Shown piece by piece: positions 1 to 21,814 of a DNA stretch of 64,000 nt. Each line of letters starts with the position of its first letter. Within the stretch, counting starts at the first letter, position 1. The position numbers and the translations under genes were made by a program. Location: assembly GCA_027493775.1 (NCBI GenBank), contig JAOSKE010000002.1:407435-471434 (forward strand). Reading direction: 5' to 3'. This stretch comes from Kiritimatiellia bacterium (lineage in GTDB: Bacteria; Verrucomicrobiota; Kiritimatiellia; CAIVKH01). Under the pieces are notes generated by a model. The model ran no database searches and was not told where the DNA came from. It saw only the letters and a list, made by a program, of their open reading frames with translations.

Positions 1-41
1 AAACCCTTCCCCCATCAACTCATCCACTCATCAACCGGCTT

Positions 42-1668: not shown

Positions 1669-1699
1669 AACTTCGGGCATTTCCGGCAAGGCTATACCG

Positions 1700-2743: not shown

Positions 2744-2805
2744 CCGCAGGCGTCGGACTGATCCTTGTGTCGGACCAGCCCGACGCCGCCACCTCGCCCC
2801 ACGTT

Positions 2806-3993
2806 CTATTGTTTGCTATAGGCCAGCACAAACCCGGCATAAAACGCGCACGCGCGGGTCAAATGCTCAATCTCGACACACTCATTCGGGGCGTGCGCCA
2901 TGTGTTCATGCCCGGGCCCGAACCCAATGGTCGGAATGTTGTGCATCCCCGCGCTGGCGACGCCGTTTGTGCTGAAGACCCAGTGGCCGACAATCGGCTT
3001 CTCATCGAACACCGCCTGATACGCCTCGCGCGCCTTCTTCACTTCGAGCGTGGATTCCGGCATCTCCCAGGTTGGGAAATACTTCTTCGTCGGATAGGTC
3101 AACCCCGTGTAGCTCGGCGTTGCATAATCAAGCACGCGCACAACCGCCTTCGCCTTCTTCACCGAAGGCAGCGCCTTGATCTGATTCACGGCAATCTTTT
3201 CCGTTTCGCCCACGGTCAAGCGGCGATCCAAATGGATGGCGCATCCGTCCGCGACCGCGCACAAACTCGGCGAGCGCGAACGGATGTGACTGATCGTCAC
3301 GGTGCCCTTGCCCAACGGCTTTTTCGGCTTGAGGCGCGCGTTCAACTTTTCGATATCCGCAATAATCGGCGCCATCTTATAGATCGCGTTCACGCCGCGT
3401 TCGGGCGCGGAGCCGTGGCAGGAAATTCCCGTCGTCTCCACTTCGATTTCCATGCGGCCACGGTGCCCGCGATAAATGCGCAGACTCGTCGGCTCGGTGA
3501 TGACAACCACGTTGGGACGTAGTTTCTCTTCCTTCACCAAATACTGCCAGCACAGCCCGTCACAGTCCTCCTCCTGCACCGTCGCCGTGATAAAGAGCGA
3601 TACATTCTTCGGGAAGCCCATCTTCTTCAAAAGCGCGCCCGCGTAAATTGCCGATGCCACACCGCCCTTCATGTCGCTTGTGCCGCGTCCATACAAACAT
3701 CCATTTTTTACAATCGGCTTGAACGGGTCGGTTTTCCATGCCTTGAGGTCGCCCACATCCACGGTGTCAATGTGCCCGTCAATAGCGATTTGAACCGGCC
3801 CCTTCCCGATTCGCCCGATGACGTTCCCCATCTTGTCCACGCGCACGGAATCGTAGCCGAGCTTCTTCATTTCATCTGCGATGCGGCGCGCAACGCGCCC
3901 CTCCTCGCTACTCAGCGATTTGATTGAGATGATGTCCTTCATGAATTTCAGAAGGCGCGATTCCATTGCCCGACTTGCTGCCAGTATGCTCAT
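2806..3993 (-). CDS. ygeY: YgeY-family M20 peptidase/hydrolase (selenium-metabolism-linked hydrolase family)
   Basis: 395 aa with M20 metallopeptidase motifs (GHIDTV, GRGTSDMKGG, ITEPT). Lies 5 nt downstream of the TrpB-like gene on the same strand. Confidence 0.8.
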   Translation of the reverse strand: MSILAASRAMESRLLKFMKDIISIKSLSSEEGRVARRIADEMKKLGYDSVRVDKMGNVIGRIGKGPVQIAIDGHIDTVDVGDLKAWKTDPFKPIVKNGCLYGRGTSDMKGGVASAIYAGALLKKMGFPKNVSLFITATVQEEDCDGLCWQYLVKEEKLRPNVVVITEPTSLRIYRGHRGRMEIEVETTGISCHGSAPERGVNAIYKMAPIIADIEKLNARLKPKKPLGKGTVTISHIRSRSPSLCAVADGCAIHLDRRLTVGETEKIAVNQIKALPSVKKAKAVVRVLDYATPSYTGLTYPTKKYFPTWEMPESTLEVKKAREAYQAVFDEKPIVGHWVFSTNGVASAGMHNIPTIGFGPGHEHMAHAPNECVEIEHLTRACAFYAGFVLAYSKQ

Positions 3994-3998
3994 GACCT

Positions 3999-5487
3999 TT
4001 ACTCCATGTTTTTCAGTACGCCTGTTGCCTCATTGAATTCCGTGATCCGCCGATCCCATTCGGCGATCCGTTCCTCCGCAAAAATGTCCCGCCAGAACGA
4101 CTCGTCCCACAGCCTCCGCAAGTCTTCCACGTCCCGGCCCTGCTGTTCGACCCAGGTGAAGTATTTGAACTGATGCAACGCCTTCCGTTCCTGATAATTC
4201 AGCTCGCGGAAAAGAGATGTTGTGTGTCCATCGAGATAGGTCGCCGCCACGGAGATCGCATCGCGAGCGCTGAACCGGCCACGCGCCTCCGTCATTTCTT
4301 CGAGGCGCGATCCGTAAAGCTCCATCGAATCCGTAAGCGGAATAAACAGAACGTCATTGCGGTCCATCTCGTAATATTCGGCGGTCTTTACCGCTGCGAC
4401 CAAATTGCAGATTCCGGAAATGCCTGCGAGATCGAGCGATTCAATCGTTGCTTCTGGCACTCCGCTTGCCGCGAGCAAATTTTTTCCCTCTATCTCGTTA
4501 AACAACCGCATGAGCTGCATGACCGCCTCGTCATCCACCGCGGCCACCGCATCGGTATTGCGGACGTTGTGAACCCACGGAACATGCTTGTCCCCGATTC
4601 CCTCGATTCGGTGTGCGCCGAATCCAAACTGGTACAGCGTCGGACACTGTAACGCCTCCGCCGCAACGACACGCAGCTGTGGATATTTTGTCCGCAAATA
4701 ATCGCCCGCCGCAATGGTGCCCGCCGATCCCGTTGCGCTGATAAATCCCGCAAGCCGCGAAGAAGGCCCACGGATCTGATTTTCGTACACCTCGCTGATC
4801 AGCGAACCGGTGACGTGATAATGCCACATCGCGTTTCCAAACTCTTCTGAACTGATTGAAAATCACGATGTCATCGCCGCGCGTGCGGCGTAGCTCCCAG
4901 CACTTGTCGTAAATCTCTTTTACGTTCGACTCCGTGCCCGGCGTCGCAATGATCTCGTCCGTCCCGATCTCGCGCAACCAGTTGAATCGCTCCTGACTCA
5001 TTCCCTCCGGCAGAATCGCAATGGCGGGACAGCCCAGCAGCGCACAGTCGTACGCGCCGCCCCGACAATAGTTGCCGGTGGATGGCCACACGGCCTTTTG
5101 CCGGGTCGGATCGAACTGCCCCGAGACCAGACGCGGCACGAGACATCCATAGGCTGCGCCCACTTTATGGGCGCCCGTCGGAAACCACTTTCCGACAATG
5201 CCCACGATTCGAGCGTCCACCCCCGTCAGCGCCGAGGGAAACTCAATCCAGTTCCCTTCTCCGAATCCGCCTCCGCGCGGCTTCGGCTCGTTCTTCCATG
5301 TGATGCGAAACAAATTCAGCGGATTCACATCCCACAATCCGATGGAGGAAAGTTTTGTCTTAATCGCGGCGGGGATTTGGGAAGGATCCATTTGCTGCGC
5401 GATGGTCGGCAAAATTACATGCCGCTCTCGCGCACGACCAATCGCCCGTTGCAATACGCTCTCTTCCGCCATCAATCCCGTAGTCAT
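3999..5487 (-). CDS. TrpB-like PLP-dependent enzyme (tryptophan synthase beta superfamily); frameshifted near 4848
   Basis: N-terminal ORF 4531-5487 has the PLP-lysine motif FPTGAHKVG and ends ...DIVIFNQF. C-terminal ORF 3999-4829 continues in another frame (EEFGNAMWHYHVTGSL...). A 1-nt indel at about 4848 restores one ~495-aa protein. Confidence 0.75.
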
Positions 5488-5653
5488 CGAACACCCCGCT
5501 GGTTCTTTCCGCTAAAGCGTCGCGCCGACTTCGTCATCAAACAACGGAATAACAGCCTCCGGCGCCCTGATTAGCCCATCGGTAAAACCCTGATCCCTCA
5601 AAAGAGGTTCTTCCCCGATTGCGATTCACAAGGAATTACGCAACCATTCCAAC

Positions 5654-5887
5654 ATGGAAATCAGGTTGGAATATGTCGCAATGCTGAAGACCAACGCGCC
5701 GCCGAGCGGGAGCGTAATGACCGTTCAAGAGGGCATCACGATTGCAGCGCTCTTGGAACAAATCGGAATCCCTGAAAAGCAACGCGGCGTGATCACGCCG
5801 TTTGTGAACACAGCAAAAGTCAGTCAGAACCACGCGCTCCAAAACGACGACCGTGTCTTCCTCGCAATGCCGATCGGTGGCGGGTAA
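5654..5887 (+). CDS. MoaD/ThiS-family ubiquitin-like sulfur-carrier protein
   Basis: 77-aa ORF ending ...AMPIGGG-stop (C-terminal Gly-Gly typical of MoaD/ThiS). Convergent with the xanthine dehydrogenase-like gene, divergent from the TrpB-like/ygeY operon. Confidence 0.7.
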   Translation: MEIRLEYVAMLKTNAPPSGSVMTVQEGITIAALLEQIGIPEKQRGVITPFVNTAKVSQNHALQNDDRVFLAMPIGGG

Positions 5888-6005
5888 GAGCTATTTTGCC
5901 CCGCGAACAACTCGCAACCGCCTCCGCAATTTGCGGGAAGCGGCAGGACAGGCGTCGGCAAAGCATTCGCGCTTATTCGATGTCGTCCGCTGCGTCGGCC
6001 CTCTT

Positions 6006-8330
6006 GTTATCCGCCCTCGCGTTCTTGAATCGCTTTCCAAATGGCATTCGGCATGAACGGAGAGCTGCGCATACGAACGCCCACGGCATTGTAGATGGCG
6101 TTGGCGATGCAGGGGAGCGGGCCGTTGATGCAAATTTCGGAAACGCTCTTTGCGCCGTACGGGCCACTCTTTTTCGTAGCTGGGGACCAGAATGGTCTTC
6201 AGCGCCGGCTTGTCCCGCATGGACATGATCTTGTAGTGCGCGAAGGATGGATTGAGCATCCGCCCGCGTGAACTGAAGCGATACTGCTCCGTCAACGCAT
6301 AGCTGATTCCGTTCAACACGCCGCCCTCGGTCTGGCCCTCGGCCAGCTTCGGGTTCACTGCCGTGCCGCAATCCACCGCTGCGACATAGCGCAGGACGCG
6401 CACCCTGCCGGTCAACGTGTCCACCTCCACTTCGCAGAAATGTGCGGAGAAAGGCGGCGGCGACTTGTGCGTGATATGCGAGGAAATCGCGCCAATTTGG
6501 AACTGGTCCGACCCATAGAGCGAGCGCAGCGCGATTTCCGGAGAACGTGACGGATTTTCCATCCGGCCCAAACGCGCAGTTGTCGCGCAGATCGATTTCC
6601 TTGGGTTTGCATTCCATCATCGCGGCGCCAACACCAGCGATTTGTTTGGCAACTTTTTCGGCGACGTTCTTCACCGCCATTCCGCTGAGATACGTCGTGC
6701 TGGAGGCATACGCGCCAACATCGAACGGGGTTGTGTCCGTGTCCGACGAATAGACGATGAGCTTGTCCACATCGCAGCCGACTGTTTCTGCAGCGATTTG
6801 CGCAAGAATGGTATCGCTCCCCGTCCCGATGTCCGTCGCGCCGACCAGCAAATTGAATGACCCGTCGTCATTCATCTTCATCGTTGCCGCGCCCATATCA
6901 ATTTCGGGGATGCTGGATCCCTGCATCAGCGACGCCATTCCGATGCCGCGACGGAAGCGCCCTTTTTTGTCCTGCCAGCGCCCGCGCTTTTTCCAACCGA
7001 TCTCGCGTGCGCCGAGCTTCATGCACTTCTCCATTTCGCAACTGCCGATGGACTGTTCGACGCCCGCCTTTCCTTCTCCCAGCGCCCGGAAAACCGGCGA
7101 TGTTTCACCCGAGCGAATCGTGTTCATCCGGCGGAACTCCAGCGGGTCCATGCCGAGCATCTCCGCCAGCTCATCCATCATGCAATCAATGCCGAACGTG
7201 GATTGCGTCGCGCCATACCCGCGATACGCTCCGCCGACCGGCAGGTTGGTGTATGCGGATTCGCCGACAAAGTGGATGGTTTTGCTGCGGTACAGCGGAA
7301 GAATTTTGCTGCCGCTATTGCACACCACCGTCAGCGCGTGCGCACCGTACGCCCCCGAGTTTGTGCAGCAATCCAACGCAAGCGCACTGATTGATCCATC
7401 CTTTTTCACGCCGGCACGAATACGCATTTTCTCGGGATGTCGCGTCCGGCTGGAAACAAACTCTTCCTCGCGCGTGTATTTCCAATGCACGGCCCGACCG
7501 GTACGCAACGCGAACATGGCAACCACCGGCTCCAGCAGCACCTCCTGCTTTCCTCCGAAGCCGCCTCCGATGCGGGGTTTCACAACGCGAATCCTGCGCA
7601 CCGGGATCTGAAGCACCTGCGCAACGATGCGGCGGACATGGAACGGCACCTGTGTGCTCGTTGTGACAATCACGCGACCATCTACATCAAGATGCGCGGT
7701 CACGATATGCGGTTCAATCGGACAGTGATGCGCATAGTCCGTGTAAAACTCCCGATCAAGCATCGTGTCCGCCGCCTTCAATTCGGCCTCGACATCCCCC
7801 ACGTCCATTGCGACCCGCGCGGCGAGATTCCGCTGCGGTTCGTATGGAACCGGAATCGGGACATGCGCCTCCGGCTCGTCGTGGATCACAGGCGCACCGG
7901 GCTTGAGCGCGTCATCAATCGTGAATACGGCGGGCAGTTCCTCGTACACCACCTTGATCGCCTTCACTGCTGCGGCAGCCTGTTCCGGCGTATCCGCGGC
8001 AACTGCGGCGACGCGATCACCAACGAAGCGCACTTTATTGTCAAACAGGAAGGAATCGTATGGCGAGGGCTCGGGAAAACCCTGTCCCGCAGTCGTGTGA
8101 ACCACACGCGGAACATTGCCGTGATGCAGGATGCAATGCACCCCCGGCATCTTCTCCGCCTCGCTTACATCAATGGATACAATCCGCGCGTGCGCATGGG
8201 GACTCCACAGCGCCTTCACATACAAGGAGTCGGCGGGCTTCAAATCCGCGACAAACATCGGCTTGCCGGTGGCAAGCGAGAGGGAGTCAATTTTCCGGAC
8301 GGACTTTGCGACAACATTAAATTTCTTCAT
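6006..8330 (-). CDS. xanthine dehydrogenase family molybdopterin-binding subunit (XdhD-like); two frameshifts (~6540 and ~6166)
   Basis: N-terminal 600 aa read in the frame of ORF 5973-8330 up to ...GPDGKSVTFS. The middle (FCEVEVDTLTGRVRVL...GQTEGG...ILVPSYEKE) is in the frame of ORF 5891-6571. The true C-terminus GPYGAKSVSEICINGPLPCIANAIYNAVGVRMRSSPF...EREGG-stop at 6006 is in the third frame. Confidence 0.8.
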
Positions 8331-8788
8331 GACCGCGCCTCCGAAGCAAGTTTGCGTAACGCCGATTCAATCTTCTGATAACCCGTACACCGACACAACT
8401 GGCCGTCCAGCGCGACAGCCAGCTCCTCTTCGGTGGGCGATGGATTTTTGTCAAACAGCGCCTTCGCCGCGAGAATGACTCCAGGCATGCAATACCCGCA
8501 CTGAATCGCGCCCTCCTCCACGAGCGCGTCCTGAATGGGATGCGGATGATCCAACGAACCGATCGCCTCCACCGTTTCCACCGTCCGCCCGTTCACCTGC
8601 CCGGCGTAGGTAAGACAGGAATTAATGAGGCGGCCGTCCACATTCACCGCACACGACCCGCACGCGCCTTCGTTGCACCCAATCTTTACGCTGGCGCAAC
8701 CAAGTTCCCGCAACAGGTCCGCGAGTTTGGTGTTGGCCTCAACTTCCGCCGTTCGCAATTTTCCATTGAGCGTGAATTGAATATTCAT
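8327..8788 (-). CDS. (2Fe-2S)-binding subunit of xanthine dehydrogenase-family enzyme
   Basis: Cys motifs CNEGACGSCAV and CGYCMPG...CRCTGY. Start at ATG 8788 (MNIQFTL) preceded by GGAGGAAGG; the stop overlaps the Mo-subunit start. Confidence 0.85.
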   Translation of the reverse strand: MNIQFTLNGKLRTAEVEANTKLADLLRELGCASVKIGCNEGACGSCAVNVDGRLINSCLTYAGQVNGRTVETVEAIGSLDHPHPIQDALVEEGAIQCGYCMPGVILAAKALFDKNPSPTEEELAVALDGQLCRCTGYQKIESALRKLASEARS

Positions 8789-8790
8789 AA

Positions 8791-9631
8791 TTACCTTCCT
8801 CCCGCCATCCCGCACGCCTCTAAAATCGCATCGGGCAAATGTGCGCGCGCCAGTTGTTTGATGTACTCACTGCTGTATCCGCGATCCCCTTTCCAGGAAA
8901 CACCGGCCAGATGCGCTTCCACGGCGGCGGCGATGTCCGCCTCTGCGCATTTTTTTCCCGACAAGCTCCGCCTCCAATGCCGAGAGTCGGCAAGGCAGCG
9001 GGACGCCCGCTCCAACCGCGACCCGTGCATCCCGAATCGTCCGGCCTTCGCGGCGAATCCATGCCGCAATGGTGAGGTGGCTGAAGTCCATATTAACAAG
9101 GCTCTCCTTGTGATAGCCAAAGCCGGACCCCTCTCCGATTTCCGGAACGGATATTTCAGTGAGCAGGTCGCCCGGCTGAAATAGACGACTCGGTTGACCA
9201 TCGAAAAAGACCGACGCCAGATGCGAGGTTTTTGCCTCGCCCGAAATGGTCATCGTTGCGTTCAGCGCAAGCAGCGCGACAGGAAAATCATTCCACGGAA
9301 AAACGCGGCTGATGTTTCCGCCGATGGTCGTCATATTTCGTAGCGGCTGACTCACAAAGCGAAGCGCGACGCGATCCAGCACCCAGCCCGGAGCGTGAAA
9401 CGCCTGCAAATCCGCAATTCGCGTATTTGCGCCGACCACAAAATGTCCATTTTTGCACTCAACACCTTCGAATCCGATATCGGCAATGTCCACACCGATT
9501 TTTTCGTCATCATTCTTAACAAATGAATGCGACGACGCGCCCGCAAGCGGCATCGCCGTCGGGCCAAGCTCCTTCAACAGTCGGCGCGCATCCGCCAGTG
9601 ATTTCGCGCGGTGATAGGCAGTCAGTTTCAT
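8791..9631 (-). CDS. FAD-binding subunit of xanthine dehydrogenase-family enzyme (YgfM-like); frameshifted in A7/T7 run 8950-8956
   Basis: ORF 8867-9631 (MKLTAYHRAKS...LPCRLSALEAELVGKK) plus the C-terminus in another frame (AEADIAAAVEAHLAGVSWKGDRGYSSEYIKQLA, part of ORF 8791-9201). The junction is at the T7 run. Confidence 0.75.
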
Positions 9632-11004
9632 ATTTGACCTCCAGCTTTCTTCAACATCATATCCGTCAACTCGTTCGCCCTATGAAAGAGACGCTGCTCA
9701 TCCGTGCCGATCAACTCGCCGCCGGCCACGCGAATGACGCCATTAACGATCGTATAATCCGCGCGCGCACCCGCGCCGCAGAACAGGATGGCGGACGCGG
9801 GATCCGTCATCGCGCCCGCGTATTCAATCCGATCCAGTCGAAACAAGGCGATATCCGCAAGCGCCCCCGGCGCAATACGTCCAATCTCCGGCCATCCGAA
9901 CACCTCTGCGCCCCCGCGCGTCGCCATGTGCAGCACACGACTCGACGGCATCGCGTCAACCGCCGTTCCAACGCGATGCGCCAGCAGCGCCATTTGCATT
10001 TCGCGGCTGAAACTGGAACTATCATTGCTGGCGGAGCCGTCCACTCCGAGCGCAACGCGAACACCCGCCTCCATCATGCGCGGAATCGGCGCAATTCCCG
10101 ACCCCAGCCGCAGATTGGACGACGGACAGTGCGCGATTCCGGTTTTCGTCGCCGCGAGTTTCTGTATTTCACCGTCATTAAAATAGATGCCGTGCGCAAA
10201 CCAGACATCGGGACCCAGCCACTCGTTCTCCTCCATGTATTCGATCGGTCGCTGTCCGAACATCTCGCGGCAGTAATTCTCCTCATCCACGGTCTCGCAC
10301 AAATGCGTGTGACAGATGACGCGATGTGCACGGGCAAAGCGGATTGTCTCCCGTAACAACTCCGTCGTAACCGAAAACGGCGAACACGGCGCGAGGGCCA
10401 GTCGACACATCGAATCCGGCTCGGGGTTGTGGTATTTTGCGATCAACCGGTCACAATCCGCGATGATTTCCTCGTGATGCTGCACCACGTCATCGGGCGG
10501 AAGTCCGCCATGTGATTTGCCCCGGCTCATGCTGCCGCGTGTGGGATGGAAGCGAATGCCCATCGCGCGCGCGGTTTCAATTTCCACATCCACCAATTCC
10601 CGCGTCACACCACGCGGGAAAACGTAAAAGTGATCCGAGGTGGTTGTGCAGCCGGACAACAACAGCTCGCCGATCCCGACACGCGCGCTGATATCCACCG
10701 CCTCCGGCGTAAGCCAGCGCCAGATTTCGTAAAGATTTGTCAGCCAGTCGAACAGTTTCGCGTTTTGAACGGCCGGAATGTTGCGCGTCAGTGTCTGATA
10801 AAGATGGTGGTGCGTATTGATGAAACCGGGGTAGAGCACATGGTTGCTCGCATCAATCACCGACGCGCCGGGTGGCGCGTCGAGCGACGGCTTAATCGCG
10901 GCGATTCGATTGCCCTCCACAAGCACATCCACGTCATGCACAGGCTGCTCGCCATCCACCATGCTGACGAGGGTCTGCACCCGTTTTAGAAGGATGGCAC
11001 TCAA
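9628..11004 (-). CDS. amidohydrolase-family deaminase (8-oxoguanine/guanine deaminase-like)
   Basis: Metal-binding motif GFINTHHHLYQT and typical amidohydrolase C-terminal half. Start is ambiguous: TTG at 11004 (after GGGGGAG) or GTG at 11019; the ORF track ATG at 11112 overlaps the upstream gene. Confidence 0.75.
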   Translation of the reverse strand: MSAILLKRVQTLVSMVDGEQPVHDVDVLVEGNRIAAIKPSLDAPPGASVIDASNHVLYPGFINTHHHLYQTLTRNIPAVQNAKLFDWLTNLYEIWRWLTPEAVDISARVGIGELLLSGCTTTSDHFYVFPRGVTRELVDVEIETARAMGIRFHPTRGSMSRGKSHGGLPPDDVVQHHEEIIADCDRLIAKYHNPEPDSMCRLALAPCSPFSVTTELLRETIRFARAHRVICHTHLCETVDEENYCREMFGQRPIEYMEENEWLGPDVWFAHGIYFNDGEIQKLAATKTGIAHCPSSNLRLGSGIAPIPRMMEAGVRVALGVDGSASNDSSSFSREMQMALLAHRVGTAVDAMPSSRVLHMATRGGAEVFGWPEIGRIAPGALADIALFRLDRIEYAGAMTDPASAILFCGAGARADYTIVNGVIRVAGGELIGTDEQRLFHRANELTDMMLKKAGGQI

Positions 11005-12316
11005 TGGATTCTCCCCCACAACGCACGCGCGCGCTCGTTTGCCTTTCTTCGTATTCCGGCTTCGTCGAGATGCGAAATGACGCCGTTTTCCAGCAACACG
11101 CGACCACGGCAAATCGTTGTCGTCACCGGCGCGGCGACTAGGCCGAACAAGAGGTGACCGTAAAATGTGGAGGAGTTGAAGGGGGTGAACGGGCGATAAT
11201 CAAAGATTGCGATGTCCGCCAGACACCCCGGCGCAAGACGTCCGCGCGGCTCCGGGAAAATACGGTCGCAAATCGCGCGGTTATTTTCCAACAACAGCCG
11301 ACACGCCTCAACAAATGCCACGCGCGGGTCGCGACGGATTGCGCGTTGCGCGAGATACGCCGCGCGCGCCTGTGCGATCAATTGGTTGGACATGCCATCC
11401 GTTCCTAGACCAAGCAGGATCCCATCGCGCAGAATTTCGAGCAACGGCGTCATCCTAAGTCCGTTGTTCATATTCGACTCGGGATTCGTCGCCATCATGC
11501 TGTCCGATTCGGCGAGCATCTTCCGGCCGCGCTCGTCCAGATGAATTCCGTGCGCGAAGATGGATTTCGGCCCGACAATGCCCGCGCGCTGGAAGCGATC
11601 AATCGGGAGCGCGCCAAATTCGCGCAGCGACGCTTCTCCATCGCACTCCGCCTCATCAATATGCACATGAAAGCCCGTGTCCAGCGCCTGGCCTTCCGCC
11701 GCACAGCGCTCCAGCGTGTCGGGGCTGAGTGTCATGGATGCGTGCAGGCCGAACAGCGGTTGTATCTGAGGGTTCTTCGCCGTCCGGCATTTCTTAATGA
11801 ACCGGATATTCTCCGCGACCCCTCCCCCTTCTTGTTGCGGTCTGACACTTCGTAGCAAAGGCAGCCATTCAATCCGGCCTCACGGAACGCGCGCTCGACT
11901 ATGTCAAGGCTTCCATCCGCGCAGGCGGGCGAGGCATGATGATCAATAATCGTTGTGCATCCGGCATGAATCGCCTCCACGCAGGGAAGAATGGACGAGT
12001 AATAGACATCCTCCGCGTCCAACGCGGCGTCGAGTTTCCACCAGAGCCGTTCGAGTATTTCCTGAAAGTTTTTCGCCGGCTCGCCCGGCGGCGAGAAGCC
12101 GCGCGCCAGGGTTGAATACAGGTGATGATGCGCATTAATCAGGCCGGGCATGACAATGCGGCCTTCCGCATCAATCGTGCGATCCACTCTTTCCGTCGCC
12201 ACACGACCGACGGCGAGAATTTTCGTGTCTTCCACGAGAATGGAGCCGTTTTCAATGATGGCCCCCGCGTCATCGAGCGTCACCAATGTTCCGTTTTGTA
12301 TTAATATGCGGCTCAT
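11001..12316 (-). CDS. ssnA: SsnA-like amidohydrolase; frameshifted in C-run 11819-11828
   Basis: N-terminal ORF 11732-12316 (MSRILIQNGTLVTLDD...GLINAHHHLYSTLARG) and C-terminal ORF 11001-11858 are in different frames; the junction ...EVSDRNKKGEG/VAENIRFIKKC lies in a C4/C5 run. Confidence 0.75.
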
Positions 12317-12317
12317 T

Positions 12318-15300
12318 TTATGAATTCTCCATCAGGGGTATAAACGGAACCGATCCGCGCAGACCATTTAGCAACGCCATCATCTCCACCACCGGGCGCA
12401 GCGAAACGCGCTCGCAATCCGGCGCATTGGGCTTGGCGGTGATGGAAAGCAACTCCCAGCCCACGGACCAAACGGCATCCAGTTCAGGGCTCGAATAATC
12501 AATCCGGCCATTCAGCGACAGGGTGTGCGTTCGACCCGCGATACGCGAGTGAATGGCCGCGCCATCAGCCAATCGCTCCAAGAGAAACGCATTGTTCGAC
12601 TCGCGCTCCCATTCATCGCGCCGCGAGTAGATGCGCGGCTTGTCTTTGTACGGTTTCCCAGCGGAAGGGCAAAACGTGACGCAGTTTCCGCACTCGTTGC
12701 ACAGATCGGCAAACACCGCAACCTGGTAGCGCTGCGTGATTTTGATCGTTTCTCCGTCGAGCGCGAACCAGCGGCTATCCTTAATCCGACCCAACGGCAG
12801 TGTCTTGCAGATCGGCGCGTGCTCGTAGGTGAACAATGCAAGGTTGGGGCATACGCCGACGCAGTAGCTGCACAACAGGTCGCAATCGAGACAGCGCGAC
12901 GCCTCCTCCTTTGCGATCCGTTGACTCAACGTGTTGACAACCTCGTCGAAATCGCGGCGATCTTTCGGCGCCCGCTCCGGCGCCTTCACGGCAAATTTCC
13001 GGGTCACTCTGCGACGCTGAAATTCCGCGCGATTCACAAACAACGCGGACTCCTTTTGCCCGTCCGCAGCGCGCCCCTCAAACTTCGCGCGAATCGCGCG
13101 CGCGATTCTCTTGCCGTCGCCCAACGCCTTCACAATCGTCGCCGGCCCGCTGCCGACCGCGTCGCCGCCCGCATACACGCCCGGTGCGCTGGTTTCCAAG
13201 GTCACTGAATCAACCTGCACGTAGCCGTTCTTGTTCAGCGCGACCCCCGCCTTTTGCAGCCACTCGAAATCACCGGCCTGACTGATTGCGACAATCAGCG
13301 TGTCCATCCCGAACGTTTCCGTTTCATCGCCTTTGGGCGATGGACGACGACGCCCGCTTGCATCCGGCTCGCCCAGCTCCATAACGCGACAAACCAAGCC
13401 GGTGAGATGGCCGTTTTCAGTGAGAATTTTTGCGGCGCACGCAATTCACGAATCGGAATGCCCTCCTCCAATACGCCCCGCAATTCATCGCGCTGTGCGG
13501 GCATTTCTTTGAGGGTGCGGCGATAAATAATGTTCACGCTCTCCGCGCCAAGCCGCCATGCGGCGCGTGCGCAGTCCATCGCGACATCGCCGCCGCCAAT
13601 GACCCCGACGCGGCGTCCGATTTTGGGACGACGCCCTTCGCGCGACTCGCGGAGAAATGAAAGCGAATCCCAAACACCCGGCGCATCCTCATCTTCCAGA
13701 CCAAGCCGCCCCGCGCGCTGCGCGCCGATGGCGACAAGGACTGCCGCGTATCCTTCGCGCTGCAAATCCGACAACTGGAAATCAACACCAGCTCGCTGCT
13801 TGTGCCGGACTTCGACGCCGCGTTGCTGCAAGAACGCCAGATCGCGCTGCAACGCGTCGTCGGATGAGCGATAGCCGGGAATTGAGGAGGCAACCATTCC
13901 CCCCTTGCGATCACTCGCATCGAAGATCGTCACGGGATAACCGGCGCGCGAGAGAAAATCCGCCGCGCCCAAGCCGCATGGCCCCGCCCCAACAATTGCG
14001 ATCCGCTCTCTCTTCTTCGGCTCGACAGCCGTTTGACTCTGCGCGTAGTCAACGATGAATCGCTTGATCTCGCGTATCGCGAGCGGCTCGTCCAAGTGCG
14101 AGCGAACACAGCGCATTTGGCAGGGATGGTGACACGCGCGGCCCAAAACAGACGGCATGGTGTTGTCGCGGCACACAATCGCGACGGCCTCATCCAAGCG
14201 GCTTCCTGCGACCGCGCGCATATACTCCGGCACACCCTGCTCAATCGGACACACCTCAACGCAGGGCGCTTTGATGCAGTCGAAAAGACCAAGCGGCCGG
14301 AGCGACTTTGTATCGGTTCGATCAAACGTCTCCTCACGATACAATCTGCTATCCAACACCTCCGCCGCGTAGCGCCTCAAATTGGCCTGCGCCGCCACAA
14401 TTCGATGATCGTTCCCTGCGGTCTTGCGGACAAATTCATCCGGCGAGTGCGCCTGCGCGGACTTCATCGCCGCCGCGAGATGCTGAACGTACTGCGCGAG
14501 TCGGCCATAGCCGCCGGAGCGGAGCAAATCCGAACAGACGGTGACGGTCCTCATGCCGCACTGCATCAACGACGCGATATTGAAGGCGTCCGCGCCGCCC
14601 GCAAATGAGACATCCACTTCGCCGCCGAACGCCTCTTGCAGGCGGAGCGCGGCGTGAACCGTCACAGCATGCAGCGGGCGGCCGGACATGTACATCTGCT
14701 TTTCTTTGGCGTCAAACGTCCGGCGGTGATTGATGACTTCCAGCGTATTCGACAGCTTCACTCCGAAGGACAAGCCCTGCGCCGCAGCGACGGCGCGGAG
14801 TTCACGGATCAGTTCCACGGCGTTATCAAAAGTGATGTCGTGCTCGAACGCCGCGTCCGGAACCGTGATGTCGTCGAAGCCGAGCTGATCATTCAAAATT
14901 GCGCGCAGCCGTTCCGGGCCAAGTAGCGTGGGGTTCAACTTGACGTAGGTGTGAAGCCGCTTCTTTTCGAGCAAATAGCGGCTGATTGCGCCGATTTCGC
15001 CAGGCGGACAACCGTGCATGGTCGAGAGGGTGACATTGTTGGAAACTCGACTGGGAACAGGCACGTCACCGATGTCGGGAAATATCCTGGAGAGTGTTTC
15101 TTTTCCCTTTTGGACCAAATCAGAGGCGTTCTCCATCGCGTCGAAGAAGCCCTGCACGTTCGGCTTGAGGATTCCCTCCATGTTGTAGCCGACGCTCATG
15201 TTGAAGACGGCGCCCGGCTGGTCGCCTTCCAACCCCAATACGCGATGCAGATAATGCGTCAGCAGCCAAGCGTTCACGTATTCCTGAATAGACTCGCGCA

Positions 15301-15649
15301 CGCGCAACTCTTGCGACCACTCCACATTGTAACCCGCGTCCTCCATATCAATGCACGGTTTACTGACCTCCAGCTCGTCCAGCGTTTGGATCGTCTTCAG
15401 TTCGATGAACCGTGCGCCGCACAGCCAGGCCGCAACGATGTTCTGCGCCATTTGCGTATGCGGCCCCGCAGCGACACCGATGGGCGTGAACAGCGTCTGT
15501 CCGAAAACGGAGGTGCGGAACGGGTCGGAAGCGCGCGGCTCGTAAAACAACTCACGATGGATTCCAAAAATGGATTGATTCGCCGCCATCTCATCGCGCA
15601 CCCATCCCGCAAGACGGCCCAACGATAGAGGAAACATTCGATCACTCAT
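12318..15649 (-). CDS. ygfK: YgfK-like putative selenate reductase subunit (FAD/NAD-binding plus Fe-S domains); frameshifted at T5 run 13427-13431
   Basis: ORF 13295-15715 carries Cys clusters and GXGXXG motifs (IAIVGAGPCGLGAA, VGVIGGGDVAMD). The C-terminal 360 aa (ORF 12318-13397, LVCRVMELGEPDASGRRRP...) is in another frame. Start taken at MSDRMFPL (15649), immediately after the sdaA stop. Confidence 0.75.
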
Positions 15650-16917
15650 GAAACACTCCCTTCCGTCGCCGCGACGACCGGCGCGGCTTGCGTTGACGCG
15701 GCTCGTTTGCGCCACACTGCGGCAAGGCCGCCGCGCGCGGTTTCCCGATAGGCGCTTTGCAGATCAAGCCCGGTGCGGTACATCACCTCGACCACATCAT
15801 CGAAACTCACGCGGTGCCGCCCATCCGTCAGCAGCGAAAACGATGCGCACTCAAACGCGCGAAGGCAGGCGGCCATGTTCCGCTCGATGCAGGGAATTTG
15901 CACGTAGCCTTCCACCGGGTCACAGGTCAATCCGAGGTGGTGCTCCATTCCGATTTCAGCGGCGTATTCAATTTGATGCGGCGAGCCGCCAAGCAGTTGT
16001 GAACACGCCGCAGCGGCCATGGAGCAGGCGGAACCGATTTCGCCCTGGCACCCCACTTCAGCGCCGGACACGGAGGCGTTTGCGCGGATGACTGACCCGA
16101 ACAAACCCGCAGTCGCCAATGCGCCCAGGATTTCCTGAAGAGGCGTCTTTTTAACCGTCGCAAAATAGTACAGCAACCCCGCGACCACTCCGGCGGGGCC
16201 GCAGGTCGGCGCGGTGACAATCGTTCCGGCGCTTGCGTTTTCTTCCGCGACCGCCAGGGCAAAGGAGGACAGAAACGCGAGATCGCGCCGCGTGCCCTGC
16301 AGGGATTGCGCCCGCTCCCAGGTGGTTCCTGCCTGGCGCGAGAGGTTCAGCGAACCGGGCAGAAGCTTGTCCGTGCTCTTCAACCCGCGCTCAACACTGT
16401 CGCGCATAGCGGCCCAAATCGGGATCAGCCTGTTCCATACATCCGGCTCATGCAGTTCGACGAATTGCCGGAACGAGCTGTTGTTTTTTTCGCACCAGTC
16501 GAGCGCGTCCGCGAGATTGGAAATGGGATAGGTGACGACCTCTCCCGTATTGACCGGCCCGCTGTCGTCGCGCAACGAACCGCCACCAATGCTGTACACG
16601 CGCCATTCATCTGAAATAAATCCCAGCGCATTGATCGCTTGCCAGATCATCGTGTTCGGGTGAACCGGAGTTGGCGACACGGCGTCCCACACGATTTCGC
16701 AAGCGATCGGATATAGCGCGGCGATAATCGTTCTATCCGTCAGATGTCCGCGTCCCGTCTCCGCAAGACTGCCCTGCAGGGTCACGCGCACGCAGGCGGG
16801 AGGGGTTGTCTGGCGGTCGAGAAGTATGCGCGCGGCACGCTGCGGCCCAATGCTGTGCGAGCTGGATGGACCCGCGCCAACTTTGAACGTCTCAAAAATG
16901 GATTCCACGACCGGCAT
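15646..16917 (-). CDS. sdaA: L-serine dehydratase, iron-sulfur-dependent, single chain
   Basis: Motifs FKVGAGPSSSHSIGP, YSIGGG, ANASVSGAEVGCQGEIGSACSMAAA and GMEHHLGLTCDPV...VQIPCIERN match the L-serine dehydratase family. First gene of the seven-gene minus-strand operon. Confidence 0.8.
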   Translation of the reverse strand: MPVVESIFETFKVGAGPSSSHSIGPQRAARILLDRQTTPPACVRVTLQGSLAETGRGHLTDRTIIAALYPIACEIVWDAVSPTPVHPNTMIWQAINALGFISDEWRVYSIGGGSLRDDSGPVNTGEVVTYPISNLADALDWCEKNNSSFRQFVELHEPDVWNRLIPIWAAMRDSVERGLKSTDKLLPGSLNLSRQAGTTWERAQSLQGTRRDLAFLSSFALAVAEENASAGTIVTAPTCGPAGVVAGLLYYFATVKKTPLQEILGALATAGLFGSVIRANASVSGAEVGCQGEIGSACSMAAAACSQLLGGSPHQIEYAAEIGMEHHLGLTCDPVEGYVQIPCIERNMAACLRAFECASFSLLTDGRHRVSFDDVVEVMYRTGLDLQSAYRETARGGLAAVWRKRAASTQAAPVVAATEGSVS

Positions 16918-17095: not shown

Positions 17096-18319
17096 ATGCG
17101 TGACTACTGGTCGCGCGGAAAGGGACAAGTGAATACGCTGAATTCAATTATCGCCGACTTGCGCAAACGCCCCGCATCTCTTCACGGAAAAGATTTTCTC
17201 CTAACGTGGGATCGCTCGCTCGATGAATTAAAGTTGATCCTCGGCCTTGCCGAAGCCCTGCGATTGATGCGCAAGCAGGGAATCTCAACGCGAGTGTTTG
17301 ACTCGGGTCTGGCGGTCTCGAATTTTCGCGACAACTCAACACGCACGCGCTTCTCGTTTGCCTCCGCCTCAAATCTTCTCGGGCTTTCCGTTCAGGACCT
17401 CGACGAAGGAAAATCACAAATCGCGCACGGCGAAACCGTCCGCGAAACGGCGACCATGATTTCCTTCCTCACGGAAACCATCGGCATTCGCGACGACATG
17501 TTTCTCGGCGCGGGTCACACCTACATGCTGGAGGTGGCGGAGGCGCTCGATGAAAGTTTCCGCGAGGGTGTATTGCCGCAACGTCCGGGCATTGTGAATT
17601 TGCAGTGCGATGTGGATCATCCGACGCAGTCCATGGCGGATTTGCTCTGGCTCGAAAAGCAATTTGGATCGCTCGACAACCTGCGCGGAAAAAAGATCGC
17701 GATGACGTGGGCGTATTCGCCGAGCTATGGAAAGCCGCTGTCGGTCCCGCAGGGCATCATCGGTTTGATGAGCCGCTTCGGGATGAATGTGGCGCTCGCG
17801 CATCCAAAGGGATACGACCTGATTCCTGAAGTCGTCGAGCGATCGGCGCGGCAGGCGAAAGAGTCTGGCGGCTCGTTCACCCACACGCATTCAATGGAGG
17901 AGGCGTTCGAGGGCGCGGACATTGTCTATCCGAAATCCTGGGCGTCTTATTCCGTCATGGAAAAGCGCACCGGGCTGTTGCGGAACAACGATCACGCCGG
18001 GCTGAAGGAATTGGAAAAGGCGTGCCTAGCGGAAAACGCTGCGCATACGAATTGGGAATGCTCGCCGGACAAGATGAAGCGCACAAAAGATGGCGACGCT
18101 CTTTATATGCACTGCCTGCCGGCGGACATCACGGGCGTTTCCTGCAAACAGGGCGAAGTGGCGGCCGACGTGTTCGAGAAATATCGCCTGCGCACGTATC
18201 ACGAAGCGGGCGGAAAGCCGTTCATCATCGCAGCCATGATTCTGGCCAACCGCTTTGCCGACCCCGTCGGCATGCTGGAGGAATTGCTCAAAAAGAACAA
18301 ATCGCGCGTCGGCGCGTAA
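17096..18319 (+). CDS. ygeW: YgeW-type knotted carbamoyltransferase
   Basis: 407 aa with the carbamoyltransferase signature NSTRTR and HPTQ; length and overall pattern fit YgeW rather than OTC or ATCase. Confidence 0.8.
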   Translation: MRDYWSRGKGQVNTLNSIIADLRKRPASLHGKDFLLTWDRSLDELKLILGLAEALRLMRKQGISTRVFDSGLAVSNFRDNSTRTRFSFASASNLLGLSVQDLDEGKSQIAHGETVRETATMISFLTETIGIRDDMFLGAGHTYMLEVAEALDESFREGVLPQRPGIVNLQCDVDHPTQSMADLLWLEKQFGSLDNLRGKKIAMTWAYSPSYGKPLSVPQGIIGLMSRFGMNVALAHPKGYDLIPEVVERSARQAKESGGSFTHTHSMEEAFEGADIVYPKSWASYSVMEKRTGLLRNNDHAGLKELEKACLAENAAHTNWECSPDKMKRTKDGDALYMHCLPADITGVSCKQGEVAADVFEKYRLRTYHEAGGKPFIIAAMILANRFADPVGMLEELLKKNKSRVGA

Positions 18320-18326
18320 GGAGAGT

Positions 18327-19286
18327 ATGACAGCGTCCGCAAAGCGGAAGAAGCTCGCGATTATCGCGATCGGCGGCAACTCGCTGATCAGCGACAGCCG
18401 CAGCATGTCGGTTCCGGATCAATACCGGGCCGCAGGCGAGACAAGCCGCCATATTTCCGCGCTTGTTAAGCTGGGCTACCGGGTGGTGGTCACCCACGGC
18501 AACGGGCCGCAGGTCGGCTTCATCCTTTTGCGCTCCGAGCTTGCCAAGGACAAACTGCACTCGGTCCCGCTCGAAAGTTGCGTCGCGGACACACAGGGCG
18601 CGATCGGTTATCAAATTCAGCAAACGCTCAAGAACGAGTTGCACCGACTGGGAATCGTACAGCCCGTCGGAACGCTGGTTACCCAGTGCGTCGTCAGCGC
18701 AAATGACCCGGCCTTCAAAAATCCGACCAAACCCATCGGCCCCTTCTATACGGAAGAGGAAGCGCGTGCCCATGAGGTGAAGGACGGCTGGACGGTGCGC
18801 GAAGACGCCGGGCGCGGGTGGCGTCGTGTGGTGCCCTCCCCCGTCCCGCGCGAGATCGTGGAGGAACCCATTATCAAGGTGTTGCTGGAACGGGATGTCA
18901 TTGTCGTCGCCGTCGGCGGCGGCGGCATCCCGGTGACACGCACAAGGAGCGGACGCCTCAAGGGTTGCGCGGCGGTGATTGACAAGGATGCCGCATCAAG
19001 CCTGCTTGCGCAAAATTTGAAGGCGGATGTTTTGATCATCTCAACCGCGGTCAATCACGTCTATGTGAACTTCGGAAAACCGGATCAGCGGCCGATTTAT
19101 TACATGTCTCTCAAGGAAGCGGAAGGTCACGTCAAAGATGGACAATTCTCCGCGGGAAGCATGTTGCCCAAAATCGAGGCGGCGATCCGCTATCTAAAAG
19201 CCGGAGGAAAGAAGGTCATCATCACACAACCGCACCTCATCGAGAGTTCGGTTGTTGGAAAGGGAGGAACACACATCACGCCATGA
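18327..19286 (+). CDS. arcC: carbamate kinase
   Basis: MTASAKRKKLAIIAIGGN...VVTHGNGPQVG...; ATG 18327 preceded by AAGGAGAG. The stop overlaps the next start (ATGA). Confidence 0.85.
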   Translation: MTASAKRKKLAIIAIGGNSLISDSRSMSVPDQYRAAGETSRHISALVKLGYRVVVTHGNGPQVGFILLRSELAKDKLHSVPLESCVADTQGAIGYQIQQTLKNELHRLGIVQPVGTLVTQCVVSANDPAFKNPTKPIGPFYTEEEARAHEVKDGWTVREDAGRGWRRVVPSPVPREIVEEPIIKVLLERDVIVVAVGGGGIPVTRTRSGRLKGCAAVIDKDAASSLLAQNLKADVLIISTAVNHVYVNFGKPDQRPIYYMSLKEAEGHVKDGQFSAGSMLPKIEAAIRYLKAGGKKVIITQPHLIESSVVGKGGTHITP

Positions 19287-20536
19287 ATACGACATCCACA
19301 TCTCACGTCAGCGGTTTCCGCTGCCTTCGTTGCGGCGCCGAGCAGCCGAAATCATTCGACGGAATGCTCTGCCCCCTCTGTGAATACAATCTCGACGTTG
19401 AATACAACTACGCCGCGATTGATCCGCACAACTGGATGAATGAGCGCGACGATTTGTTCCGCTACTCCGCGCTGCTGCCCGTCAGCAACTTGGGCCTGAC
19501 GCCGGTTCAGCGCGTCGGACAAACTCCGCTCTATCACGCCGCACGCGCAGGAAAAGCACGCGGCCTGAGTCAGCTTTATGTCAAAGACGACGGCATGAAC
19601 CCCAGCGCATCGTTCAAAGACCGCGCGGGCGCGGTGGCGCTGGTCGTCGCGCGCGAGCGCAACGCGAGCGTGATTGCCGCATCCACCACGGGCAATGCGG
19701 GCAGCTCCATGGCGGCCTTGACCGCAGGCGTAGGATTTCCGTGCGTCATTTTCGTCCCCGCGACCGCGCCCGCCGCCAAGATCGCGCAGCTTCTCGTCTT
19801 CGGTGCAAAAGTAATCGCGGTGCAGGGCACCTACGACCAGGCGTACGACCTTTGCGAAACGGCGTGCGAGGAGATGGGCTGGTTCAATCGCAATACGGGC
19901 TTCAACCCCTTCACACGCGAGGGAAAAAAAACCTGCTCGTTTGAAATCTGGGAGCAGTTGGGCGGACAGGCGCCGGATCACCTGTTGGTAGGATCGGGCG
20001 ATGGAAACATCATCAGCGGAATTTGGAAGGGCTTCCGCGACCTGCTCGCGCTCGGCCTGATCAAGAAAATGCCCGCGCTCTACAGTTGCCAATCCGAAAA
20101 AAGCGCGGCCATTGCCACCGCCGTTCGCGCCGTTCAAGACCGCTCCGCAGTGGACTGGAAGGCGCTGAAACTGCCGACGGTGAAATCGGAAACCCTTGCG
20201 GACTCCATTTCGGTGGACTACCCAAGCGACGGCATTGCAGCCATGCGCGCGATGTTTGAAACCGGCGGCGACGCAATTACGGTTTCCGAAGATGAAATTC
20301 TACGCGCCATCCCCGACCTTGCCCAATCCACCGGCGTCTTCGCCGAACCCGCCGCCACCGCCTGCTGGGCGGCATTGGACAAACTCTTAACAATGAAGAC
20401 CATCGCCCACGACGAAAAGGTCGTTTGCGTCATCACGGGCAACGGCCTGAAAGATGTCGCCAGCGCCAGAAAAACCGTGGGCCAGCCGATCACCGTGGAG
20501 CCGACGATAGAGGCCGTGATGGCGGCGATTACCTAG
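19283..20536 (+). CDS. threonine synthase-family PLP-dependent enzyme with N-terminal zinc ribbon
   Basis: N-terminal CxxC...CxxC (CLRCGAEQ...CPLCEY) and the PLP-lysine motif SFKDRAG typical of threonine synthase-like enzymes. Confidence 0.75.
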   Translation: MNTTSTSHVSGFRCLRCGAEQPKSFDGMLCPLCEYNLDVEYNYAAIDPHNWMNERDDLFRYSALLPVSNLGLTPVQRVGQTPLYHAARAGKARGLSQLYVKDDGMNPSASFKDRAGAVALVVARERNASVIAASTTGNAGSSMAALTAGVGFPCVIFVPATAPAAKIAQLLVFGAKVIAVQGTYDQAYDLCETACEEMGWFNRNTGFNPFTREGKKTCSFEIWEQLGGQAPDHLLVGSGDGNIISGIWKGFRDLLALGLIKKMPALYSCQSEKSAAIATAVRAVQDRSAVDWKALKLPTVKSETLADSISVDYPSDGIAAMRAMFETGGDAITVSEDEILRAIPDLAQSTGVFAEPAATACWAALDKLLTMKTIAHDEKVVCVITGNGLKDVASARKTVGQPITVEPTIEAVMAAIT

Positions 20537-20699
20537 CCAGCGCCCGACTCACAATCAAATTTTGCCGCAAGGCAAAACGACACCTGCGACAGACAGCTCG
20601 CCGGGACGCTTGCGGATAAACTCGCTTCGCACGCGCGATTAATAAGGCGCACGGCGCAAAGATATGCTTCACTCCGCGCCATCACTTAGGAGTTACCGA

Positions 20700-21792: not shown

Positions 21793-21814
21793 ACTTGGTT
21801 AATTCCTCGCAGCG

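Follow-up and report, generated by a model that had tools for sequence, protein, structure and literature searches.

A gene on the minus strand at positions 3999–5487 of a 64,000-nucleotide stretch of DNA from a Kiritimatiellia bacterium (contig JAOSKE010000002.1; this whole 64-kb stretch is referred to below as the window) encodes a pyridoxal 5'-phosphate (PLP)-dependent enzyme of 495 residues, a member of a CysK/CBS-like PLP family for which the label PALP495 is used here. Sequence comparisons and gene neighbourhoods indicate that PALP495 is a component of reductive urate gene clusters of a variant type lacking DpaL, the diaminopropionate ammonia-lyase also known as YgeX, in hundreds of mostly uncultured bacterial species. 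The reductive urate, or 2,8-dioxopurine, pathway was worked out in 2025 in Escherichia coli and Clostridia. At its end, YgeW and YgeY take off the two ureido groups of 2,3-diureidopropionate, giving 2,3-diaminopropionate, from which YgeX makes pyruvate (bioRxiv 10.1101/2025.05.19.654654; 10.1101/2025.04.24.650524). The published pathway relies on selenium-dependent hydroxylases, and surveys take YgeX as one of seven marker genes. Chloroflexota clusters have been reported to differ in the reductase, in a paper that is silent on the PLP step.

A conserved neighbour of urate-degradation genes

Six urate-pathway genes, encoding an XdhD-type molybdenum enzyme, YgfK, SsnA, YgeW, carbamate kinase and YgeY, lie together at 2.8–19.3 kb of the window (Table 1). 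The genes of this cluster are those of the known pathway, except for an L-serine ammonia-lyase, a second amidohydrolase and two extra PLP enzymes, PALP495 and a threonine-synthase-like protein (ThrC-like). The first-pass annotation of this DNA had placed PALP495 in an operon with ygeY, where E. coli has ygeX, and this placement holds: the ygeY gene begins 5 bp past the PALP495 stop, the two genes are probably co-transcribed, and PALP495 occupies the same slot, directly upstream of ygeY, as ygeX does in E. coli. Searching the 64-kb window with YgeX (tblastn) gave only weak matches (E 2e-5 and 8e-4), on the two other PLP genes, and no orthologue. Neither HyuA (E. coli query, tblastn) nor homologues of YqeB and YqeC were found in the window.

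The context was compared at 82 PALP495 loci, in which neighbours within 10 kb were counted with the window proteins and E. coli K-12 proteins as queries; the loci were collected with a narrower alignment (A2), a 13-sequence alignment (A1) being too diverse. The commonest neighbour was the ThrC-like gene (43/82; 44 raw, one match, at locus L076, falling on the DpaL gene of that locus), followed by genes for carbamoyltransferase (29), carbamate kinase (28), SsnA (27), xanthine dehydrogenase (XDH; 26), YgeY (21), YgfK (18) and HyuA (18). A ThiS-like gene was found at four of the 82 loci, YgeX/DpaL at two, YqeC at one and YqeB at none. At least two urate-pathway genes were present in 30 of the 38 loci from different species that have at least 8 kb of sequence on each side, and unsupervised clustering of all neighbouring open reading frames (ORFs) returned the same gene families. 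PALP495 lies directly upstream of ygeY in seven loci from different lineages (L005, L008, L009, L011, L060, L064 and L078). Several gene orders recur: Bacteroidales have YgfK, PALP495, ThrC-like, XdhD and SsnA; the fullest Woeseiaceae locus has YgfK, SsnA, XDH, PALP495, YgeY, carbamoyltransferase, kinase and ThrC-like; SAR324 and Desulfobacteraceae have ThrC-like, PALP495, YgeY, kinase, XdhD, SsnA and carbamoyltransferase; and Anaerolineae have two carbamoyltransferases and a kinase, then a transporter of the nucleoside ABC type, ThrC-like, a glycosyltransferase of family GT2, PALP495, a 192-residue protein and HyuA. Text searches of the two 2025 pathway papers found no mention of a cysteine-synthase-like or threonine-synthase-like enzyme, and literature searches (ygeY/ygeW/ygfK, albizziin, dioxopurine/isoxanthine, UacX/UacY) found no function assigned to either PLP family.

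The family itself is widespread. A word-indexed search returned at least 8000 clusters, the best 120 of which were all about 494 residues long and at least 70% identical, and 330 proteins fell below an E-value of 1e-30 when the 50%-identity representatives were searched exhaustively. At least 596 stretches encoding a PALP495 relative were found in the GTDB species-genome collection; the best 80 of these loci (57–73% identical to the query) come from Verrucomicrobia, Planctomycetes, Chloroflexi/Anaerolineae, Bacteroidales, Elusimicrobia, Woeseiaceae, SAR324, Desulfobacterales, Myxococcota, Bacillota and other groups. Among 68 full-length orthologues, on which all conservation figures given here are based, 162 of the 495 positions are at least 97% identical. 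Source records name the members only 'pyridoxal-phosphate dependent enzyme' or 'cysteine synthase'. Judged by these searches, PALP495 is a large, uncharacterised and unusually conserved family.

Rosetta-stone fusions were looked for among the long members and rejected; P0126, P0140, P0207, P0244, P0259 and P0264 have no pathway partner fused to them, since apart from the PLP domain they carry at most unrelated ABC/HerA segments, and they are probably chimeras or wrongly called genes. Three further features were noted in Chloroflexi. A membrane-anchored GT2 glycosyltransferase is encoded between the ThrC-like and CysK-like genes (L028, L037, L045, L050, L061, L069 and others; L156, 11240–12310), a placement that holds for the 495-residue family and for a 466-residue sister subfamily alike. 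A conserved protein of about 192 residues with no Pfam or NCBIfam match is encoded directly downstream of the CysK-like gene (L028, 11529–12107, and 16 other loci). A few genes beyond the cluster, on its downstream side, L045 (16993–18891) and other Anaerolineae loci encode the selenocysteine elongation factor SelB, which fits the reported selenium dependence.

Fold and active site

The description of the product as a PLP enzyme of about 495 residues with an FPTGAHKVG lysine motif was borne out, and the protein is longer than its canonical relatives. Its assignment to the TrpB type was not. PALP is the sole Pfam domain found, and the best NCBIfam matches at E <= 0.01 are cysK, cysKM and CBS, all far under their cut-offs (cysK 94 against 351 bits); the cysM model scored 37 against 394 and the SbnA model 35 against 350. 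TrpB and DpaL models were absent among the NCBIfam matches. The DpaL models TIGR03528 and PRK08206 did not match PALP495, whereas the DpaL of L076, used as a positive control, scored 489–512 bits. Every PDB sequence match listed was a cysteine synthase, a CBS or a near relative of these, β-cyanoalanine synthase for example. In profile comparisons (hhalign), the PALP495 family profile matched E. coli CysK with a probability of 98.9% (E 3e-17) and YgeX with 75.8% (E 2e-5), against 0.5% for TrpB. By curated thresholds, PALP495 is not an orthologue of CysK, CysM, CBS, SbnA, DpaL or TrpB.

A confident AlphaFold model, for which seven members of the family were used (predicted local distance difference test 86.5, predicted template modelling score 0.89), gave CysK, β-cyanoalanine synthase, CBS and the O-ureido-serine synthase DcsD as relatives in Foldseek. 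In the structure-comparison table the values were 30–33 for Fn1220, CysK, CapA1, CBS, CmnB and SbnA, 27–28 for CysM and O-phosphoserine sulfhydrylase, 24–26 for threonine dehydratases and racemases, 24.0 for ThrC, 23.7 for DpaL and 22 for TrpB. About 300 residues can be aligned to any solved structure; the first ~80 and last ~95 residues are helical in the model and have no counterpart in solved structures.

The motif W-F-P-T-G-A-H-K-V-G occupies residues 101–110 (about 5158–5187, minus strand). In the alignment with E. coli CysK, K108 corresponds to the Schiff-base lysine K42, P-S-T-G-N (135–139) to the carboxylate-binding Asn-loop P-T-S-G-N, G-S-A-G-T (253–257) to the phosphate loop and S357 to the serine at the PLP ring nitrogen, and Q212 and H222 are also conserved. 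Each of these elements is at least 97% conserved, as are T104, G105, H107, K108, V109, G110, A111 and A112. D299-K300-H301 is invariant and follows a G-I-G strand where CysK has A-G-F, and R142, likewise one of the positions at least 97% identical, lies just past the Asn-loop. The protein thus has the features by which the CysK/CBS structural class is recognised (fold, Schiff-base lysine, S/T-x-G-N loop, glutamine, glycine-rich phosphate loop and serine at PLP N1). By modelled fold and aligned active site, PALP495 is a member of this class, that of the β-substituted-alanine synthases. Its active site is predicted to be complete for CysK-type formation of aminoacrylate from an α-amino acid with a β leaving group.

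The label 'TrpB-like' was rejected because no NCBIfam TrpB model matches, the hhalign probability is negligible and tblastn with E. coli TrpB misses the gene; the resemblance to E. coli TrpB (HGGAHKTN) at the lysine is limited to the four residues GAHK. As had been noted from the sequence, there is no trpA or other trp gene nearby: E. coli TrpA and TrpB gave no tblastn match below E 0.4 in the 64-kb window. A housekeeping TrpB or CysK located here by chance could account for the GAHK motif and for the 'cysteine synthase' of the source records, but this is extremely improbable, given that similarity to TrpB is undetected, that the cysK score is so far from its cut-off, that two large extensions and a 19-residue insertion are foreign to CysK, and that the pathway context is kept across phyla.

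The ThrC-like partner and the terminal PLP step

The ThrC-like gene was never found alongside DpaL in 162 loci. Among 80 metagenome loci anchored on the ThrC-like gene, DpaL was present in none and a CysK-like gene (PALP495 or its sister) in 28; when only ThrC-like loci flanked on each side by 3 kb or more are counted, the latter figure was 14 of 30. In 16 of the 28, no more than 300 bp separate the CysK-like gene from the ThrC-like one. Five of the CysK-like genes found are of the 466-residue sister type. The intergenic gap between the two PLP genes is 31–148 bp in many loci, a spacing that speaks neither for nor against a heteromeric complex of the two enzymes. The ThrC-like gene tends to follow the carbamoyltransferase–kinase pair, and PALP495 sits next to YgeY in several lineages. 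The sister subfamily (about 466 residues, about 41% identical to the query, with a shorter N-terminus) is very large (P0137, P0338), and its loci (L095, L097, L105, L116, L156 and L170) have a carbamoyltransferase, kinase, ThrC-like, SsnA, XDH and HyuA context. The sister gene of L170 comes straight after a ThrC-like gene that is more divergent, with PydA-like reductase genes and a nitrilase-family hydrolase gene nearby. Since the sister subfamily is likewise paired with a ThrC-like gene, the CysK-like/ThrC-like pairing predates the split between the subfamilies.

Because the known pathway ends with YgeX and these clusters lack it, a PLP-dependent step is left there without an enzyme. We somewhat favour the view that PALP495 belongs to a terminal module without DpaL, in which it would carry out β-elimination or β-replacement with 2,3-diaminopropionate or albizziin as substrate. 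PLP bound to Lys108 would form an external aldimine with a three-carbon α-amino acid from the end of the pathway, either 2,3-diaminopropionate from YgeY or its 3-ureido precursor albizziin; these are the putative substrates because they are the only pathway intermediates with a free α-amino group. Albizziin arises if YgeW removes the 2-ureido group first, the order given in 10.1101/2025.05.19.654654. The β-substituent, ammonia or urea, would be expelled to give aminoacrylate, which could be released and yield pyruvate and ammonia, or be captured by a nucleophile such as water to yield serine. CmnB, SbnA and DcsD make or accommodate Cβ–N and ureido substituents, so such chemistry seems to be within reach of the fold. 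PALP495 would act beside a second PLP enzyme, which is usually the ThrC-like protein and in a small number of clusters DpaL. The labour could be split between the two enzymes as sequential steps, by opposite stereoisomers or by different leaving groups.

Several observations weigh against this proposal. Eight of the 38 fully flanked loci lack any pathway gene in the surrounding 10 kb, and no enzyme of the PALP495 type is needed for the E. coli pathway to run in vitro. The intermediates described in print have the (R), or D, configuration, whereas active sites of the CysK type are made to take L-amino acids; the two enzymes may thus be stereo-complementary, or one of them may be a racemase. YqeB and YqeC are scarce in the clusters (see the counts above), which leaves room for a role in cofactor maturation instead of one in the carbon pathway. 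Finally, a bona fide DpaL is encoded in the PALP495 cluster at L076 (PRK08206, 489 bits) and L042 (300 bits; cut-off 276), and at L076 PALP495 lies immediately upstream of it. With both enzymes in these clusters, PALP495 is not simply redundant with DpaL.

The ThrC-like gene is missing in exactly these two loci. When loci with three or more pathway genes are considered, none has both ThrC-like and DpaL, 25 have ThrC-like only, two have DpaL only and seven have neither (Fisher p 0.064, suggestive only). The ThrC-like profile matches YgeX with a probability of 97.7% (E 1.6e-12), much nearer than the PALP495 profile. The coexistence of PALP495 with DpaL, the absence of the ThrC-like gene there and the closeness of its profile to YgeX make the ThrC-like protein a candidate for the role of DpaL analogue that is no weaker than PALP495. 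On the simplest reading, the ThrC-like enzyme is the likelier direct analogue, and PALP495 adds a function that accompanies either lyase.

These data also bear on the earlier suggestion of a non-orthologous replacement of YgeX. Its contextual part stands, given the ygeX slot, the lack of DpaL in the window and the conserved neighbourhood. A strict one-for-one form, in which PALP495 alone is the diaminopropionate ammonia-lyase and the ThrC-like protein is unrelated, would explain the position upstream of ygeY and the absence of DpaL from the window and from 80 of the 82 family loci, and the active site is predicted by alignment to be competent for β-elimination. We nevertheless consider it unlikely: a true DpaL is present in the same cluster in L042 and adjacent in L076, the ThrC-like gene is absent from just these loci (despite the marginal Fisher test), and it is the ThrC-like profile that approaches YgeX. 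Moreover, the O-acetylserine sulfhydrylases of the CysK class normally hold aminoacrylate for a nucleophile rather than release pyruvate.

The scarcity of YqeB and YqeC also suits another reading, in which the CysK-like and ThrC-like enzymes are accessories of the molybdenum hydroxylase that provide the sulfur or selenium of its Mo=S/Se ligand, replacing YqeB/YqeC. The selenium-dependent hydroxylases of the published pathway, SelB near the Anaerolineae clusters and the ThiS-like neighbour in the present lineage would fit this role. It is nonetheless improbable, as it is with carbamoyltransferase, carbamate kinase and YgeY genes, and not with XDH, that tight operons are formed; L095 has the order carbamoyltransferase, carbamate kinase, ThrC-like and sister gene, and the Anaerolineae loci have no XDH within 10 kb. 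In addition, known molybdenum-cofactor sulfurases use fold-type I, NifS-like enzymes.

A role in the carbon pathway can be extended to a bolder proposal, which remains tentative and on balance somewhat doubtful: the CysK-like (495- or 466-residue) and ThrC-like enzymes would together form a previously unrecognised two-PLP terminal module of anaerobic purine degradation, present in hundreds of species of many phyla, replacing DpaL and carrying out chemistry beyond that of a simple diaminopropionate ammonia-lyase. This chemistry might be β-elimination of urea from albizziin, hydrolytic β-replacement to serine feeding a serine dehydratase, or the work of a D/L stereo-complementary pair.

The evidence indicates that clusters without YgeX and with two uncharacterised PLP enzymes are carried by a large part of environmental and gut diversity, including Verrucomicrobiota/Kiritimatiellia, Planctomycetota, Chloroflexota, Bacteroidales, Woeseiaceae and Desulfobacterales. 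If the proposals made here are true, the last pathway steps would be assigned in these organisms, better marker sets would be available for urate degraders in metagenomes, and the family behind thousands of database entries now labelled 'cysteine synthase' or 'pyridoxal-phosphate dependent enzyme' would gain a function.

The window cluster, its frameshifts and its ThiS-like gene

In the window, the minus strand carries, in order, the genes for L-serine ammonia-lyase, YgfK, SsnA, the second SsnA-like enzyme, XDH (FAD, Fe-S and Mo subunits), PALP495 and YgeY, with the ThiS-like gene on the plus strand before PALP495; YgeW, carbamate kinase and ThrC-like are encoded divergently on the plus strand. 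An Rfam scan of the window found no riboswitch and a single tRNA, and a sigma-70 promoter scan gave nothing useful for operon boundaries.

Table 1. Features of the window that are discussed in the text (L001, short-read reference contig)
Feature	Position	Strand	Basis or remark
YgeY-family M20 hydrolase	2806..3993	-	NF009555 561 bits, cut-off 321; 51% identical to E. coli YgeY
PALP495 gene (fold-type II PLP enzyme, CysK/CBS-like)	3999..5487	-	ORFs, repaired translation, Pfam PALP 69 bits
Inserted base (T on + strand), context CTCTTC[T]GAACTG	4848..4848		Base-by-base comparison with L001
FPTGAHKVG PLP-lysine motif	5158..5184	-	K108 codon 5164-5166; K108 aligns with E. coli CysK K42
ThiS/MoaD-family protein, 77 residues, ends GGG, divergent, 166 bp upstream of PALP495	5654..5887	+	Pfam ThiS 23.8 bits, cut-off 22.5
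Xanthine-dehydrogenase-family enzyme, Mo, 2Fe-2S and FAD subunits	5973..9631	-	Pfam, NCBIfam; 40% identical to E. coli XdhD
Second SsnA-like amidohydrolase, matches 8-oxoguanine deaminase model	9628..11004	-	NF006055 602 bits, cut-off 532; corresponds to 458-residue gene in L001
SsnA, ring-opening amidohydrolase, frameshifted at 11822	11001..12316	-	Intact L001 copy: NF005540 481 bits, cut-off 444
YgfK-type Fe-S flavoprotein reductase, frameshifted at 13431	12318..15715	-	L001 copy: TIGR03315 888 bits, cut-off 835
Fe-S L-serine ammonia-lyase, upstream of ygfK, same strand	15646..16917	-	TIGR00720 368 bits, cut-off 345
YgeW knotted carbamoyltransferase	17096..18319	+	NF005538 679 bits; 69% identical to E. 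coli
Carbamate kinase	18255..19286	+	TIGR00746 378 bits; 50% identical to E. coli
ThrC-like PLP enzyme, N-terminal Cys-rich ribbon, SFKDR lysine motif	19283..20536	+	Family matches, alignment

The PALP495 gene is split into two overlapping ORFs (4531–5487 and 3999–4829); up to the junction the upstream frame reads GDDIVIFNQF, and the downstream frame goes on as EEFGNAMWHYHVTG. Deletion of one base restores the 495-residue protein, which then differs from an intact database protein of that length (P0001) by a single residue, Q/H in KYP(Q/H)LRVV. P0001 is recorded for 17 short-read contigs. Four of these contigs (Logan assemblies of short-read runs) were fetched and compared with positions 21–15487 of the window; identity was about 99.7%, substitution divergence only about 0.2–0.3%, and nine gaps were found, all single-base indels, within 15.5 kb (114, 565, 4848, 6001, 6174, 6539, 8956, 11822 and 13431). 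The majority of these fall in homopolymer runs, and they break six genes: those for an amylase, PALP495, the XDH Mo subunit (three times) and FAD subunit (6001, 6174, 6539 and 8956), SsnA and YgfK. So many interruptions, in six genes within 15 kb, where substitutions are all but absent, are the mark of an error-prone assembly and not of gene decay, and other apparent frameshifts in the window are accordingly to be distrusted.

The frameshift reported at about 4848 thus corresponds to an extra base at exactly that position, and it is its standing as a true interruption that fails. Read against the short-read contigs, the insertion is almost certainly a sequencing or assembly error, and the PALP495 gene intact in the organism. 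A genuine frameshift, making the gene a pseudogene in this strain, would agree with the window sequence as given; with eight more single-base indels breaking five other genes of the cluster and its flank, so little substitution and an intact protein recorded so often, it is very improbable. Programmed frameshifting was rejected as well: the site, TTC-A-GAA, has no slippery sequence, the further indels lie nearby, and the retrieved orthologues are uninterrupted, reading FNQFEEFGN.

The ThiS-like neighbour had suggested a carrier-dependent synthase of the CysM/CysO type, in which the C-terminal thiocarboxylate or selenocarboxylate of a ThiS/MoaD-like carrier would attack the enzyme-bound aminoacrylate. 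A ThiS-fold candidate with the C-terminal GG is indeed present in the window, but the co-occurrence that this idea calls for fails. A hidden Markov model made from the window protein and its relatives, run against all ORFs of the 82 PALP495 loci, found a ThiS-like gene next to PALP495 only in L005, L008 and L006 (Verrucomicrobia-type) and in L071 (Ignavibacteriaceae), and tblastn found none in the 80 ThrC-like loci. With so few loci having the neighbour, a CysO/CysM-like mechanism cannot be a property of the family; the carrier-dependent reading as a whole is extremely improbable, though a link confined to this lineage may exist. No MoeB/ThiF-type activating enzyme, MoaE or other molybdenum-cofactor-synthesis homologue was found in the 64-kb window (E <= 0.01). 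The ThiS-like gene of L071 has MoeB-like and MobA-like genes in its surroundings, a setting indicative of molybdenum-cofactor synthesis, and its product is probably a MoaD for the Mo enzyme. The ThiS-like protein, for which no PDB relative was found by sequence and no NCBIfam match was obtained, is most simply seen as a putative MoaD-type carrier for the molybdenum enzyme.

Some further genes of the cluster deserve mention. The serine ammonia-lyase gene is also present in the close relatives L008, L088 and L089, and hints at serine as an intermediate in this lineage. The second SsnA-like amidohydrolase might supply urate from 8-oxoguanine, or it might take over the role of the absent hydantoinase HyuA. 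Two ORFs downstream of the ThrC-like gene (20664–21743 and 21795–22463, plus strand) have no Pfam or NCBIfam match and no counterparts in related loci.

Comparison with known systems

The system described here would be an established pathway in a variant form that draws on a so far uncharacterised branch of a familiar enzyme class, of relevance to purine catabolism and to the evolution of PLP enzymes. With TrpB1 and TrpB2, PALP495 shares only the fold-type II superfamily and the G-A-H-K tetrapeptide at the lysine; no other similarity to TrpB was found, and the neighbourhood is conserved across phyla. The CysK/CBS class (CysK, CBS, β-cyanoalanine synthase, Fn1220) is the closest in structure, although identity in structure-based alignments is just 20–26%. 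Compared with CysK, PALP495 has extensions of about 80 residues at the N-terminus and 95 at the C-terminus and an internal insertion of 19 residues, and its genomic context is purine catabolism, whereas that of the CysK class is sulfur assimilation. SbnA and CmnB, synthases of a 2,3-diaminopropionate precursor, and DcsD, an O-ureido-L-serine synthase, are CysK-fold enzymes that handle N-linked or ureido β-substituents; they are biosynthetic, belong to siderophore or antibiotic clusters and use O-phospho- or O-acetyl-serine, whereas the context of PALP495 is catabolic. YgeX/DpaL (E. coli b2871; PDB 4d9g) is, like PALP495, a fold-type II PLP enzyme encoded directly upstream of ygeY in a urate cluster, and PALP495 is a candidate for the same segment of the pathway.

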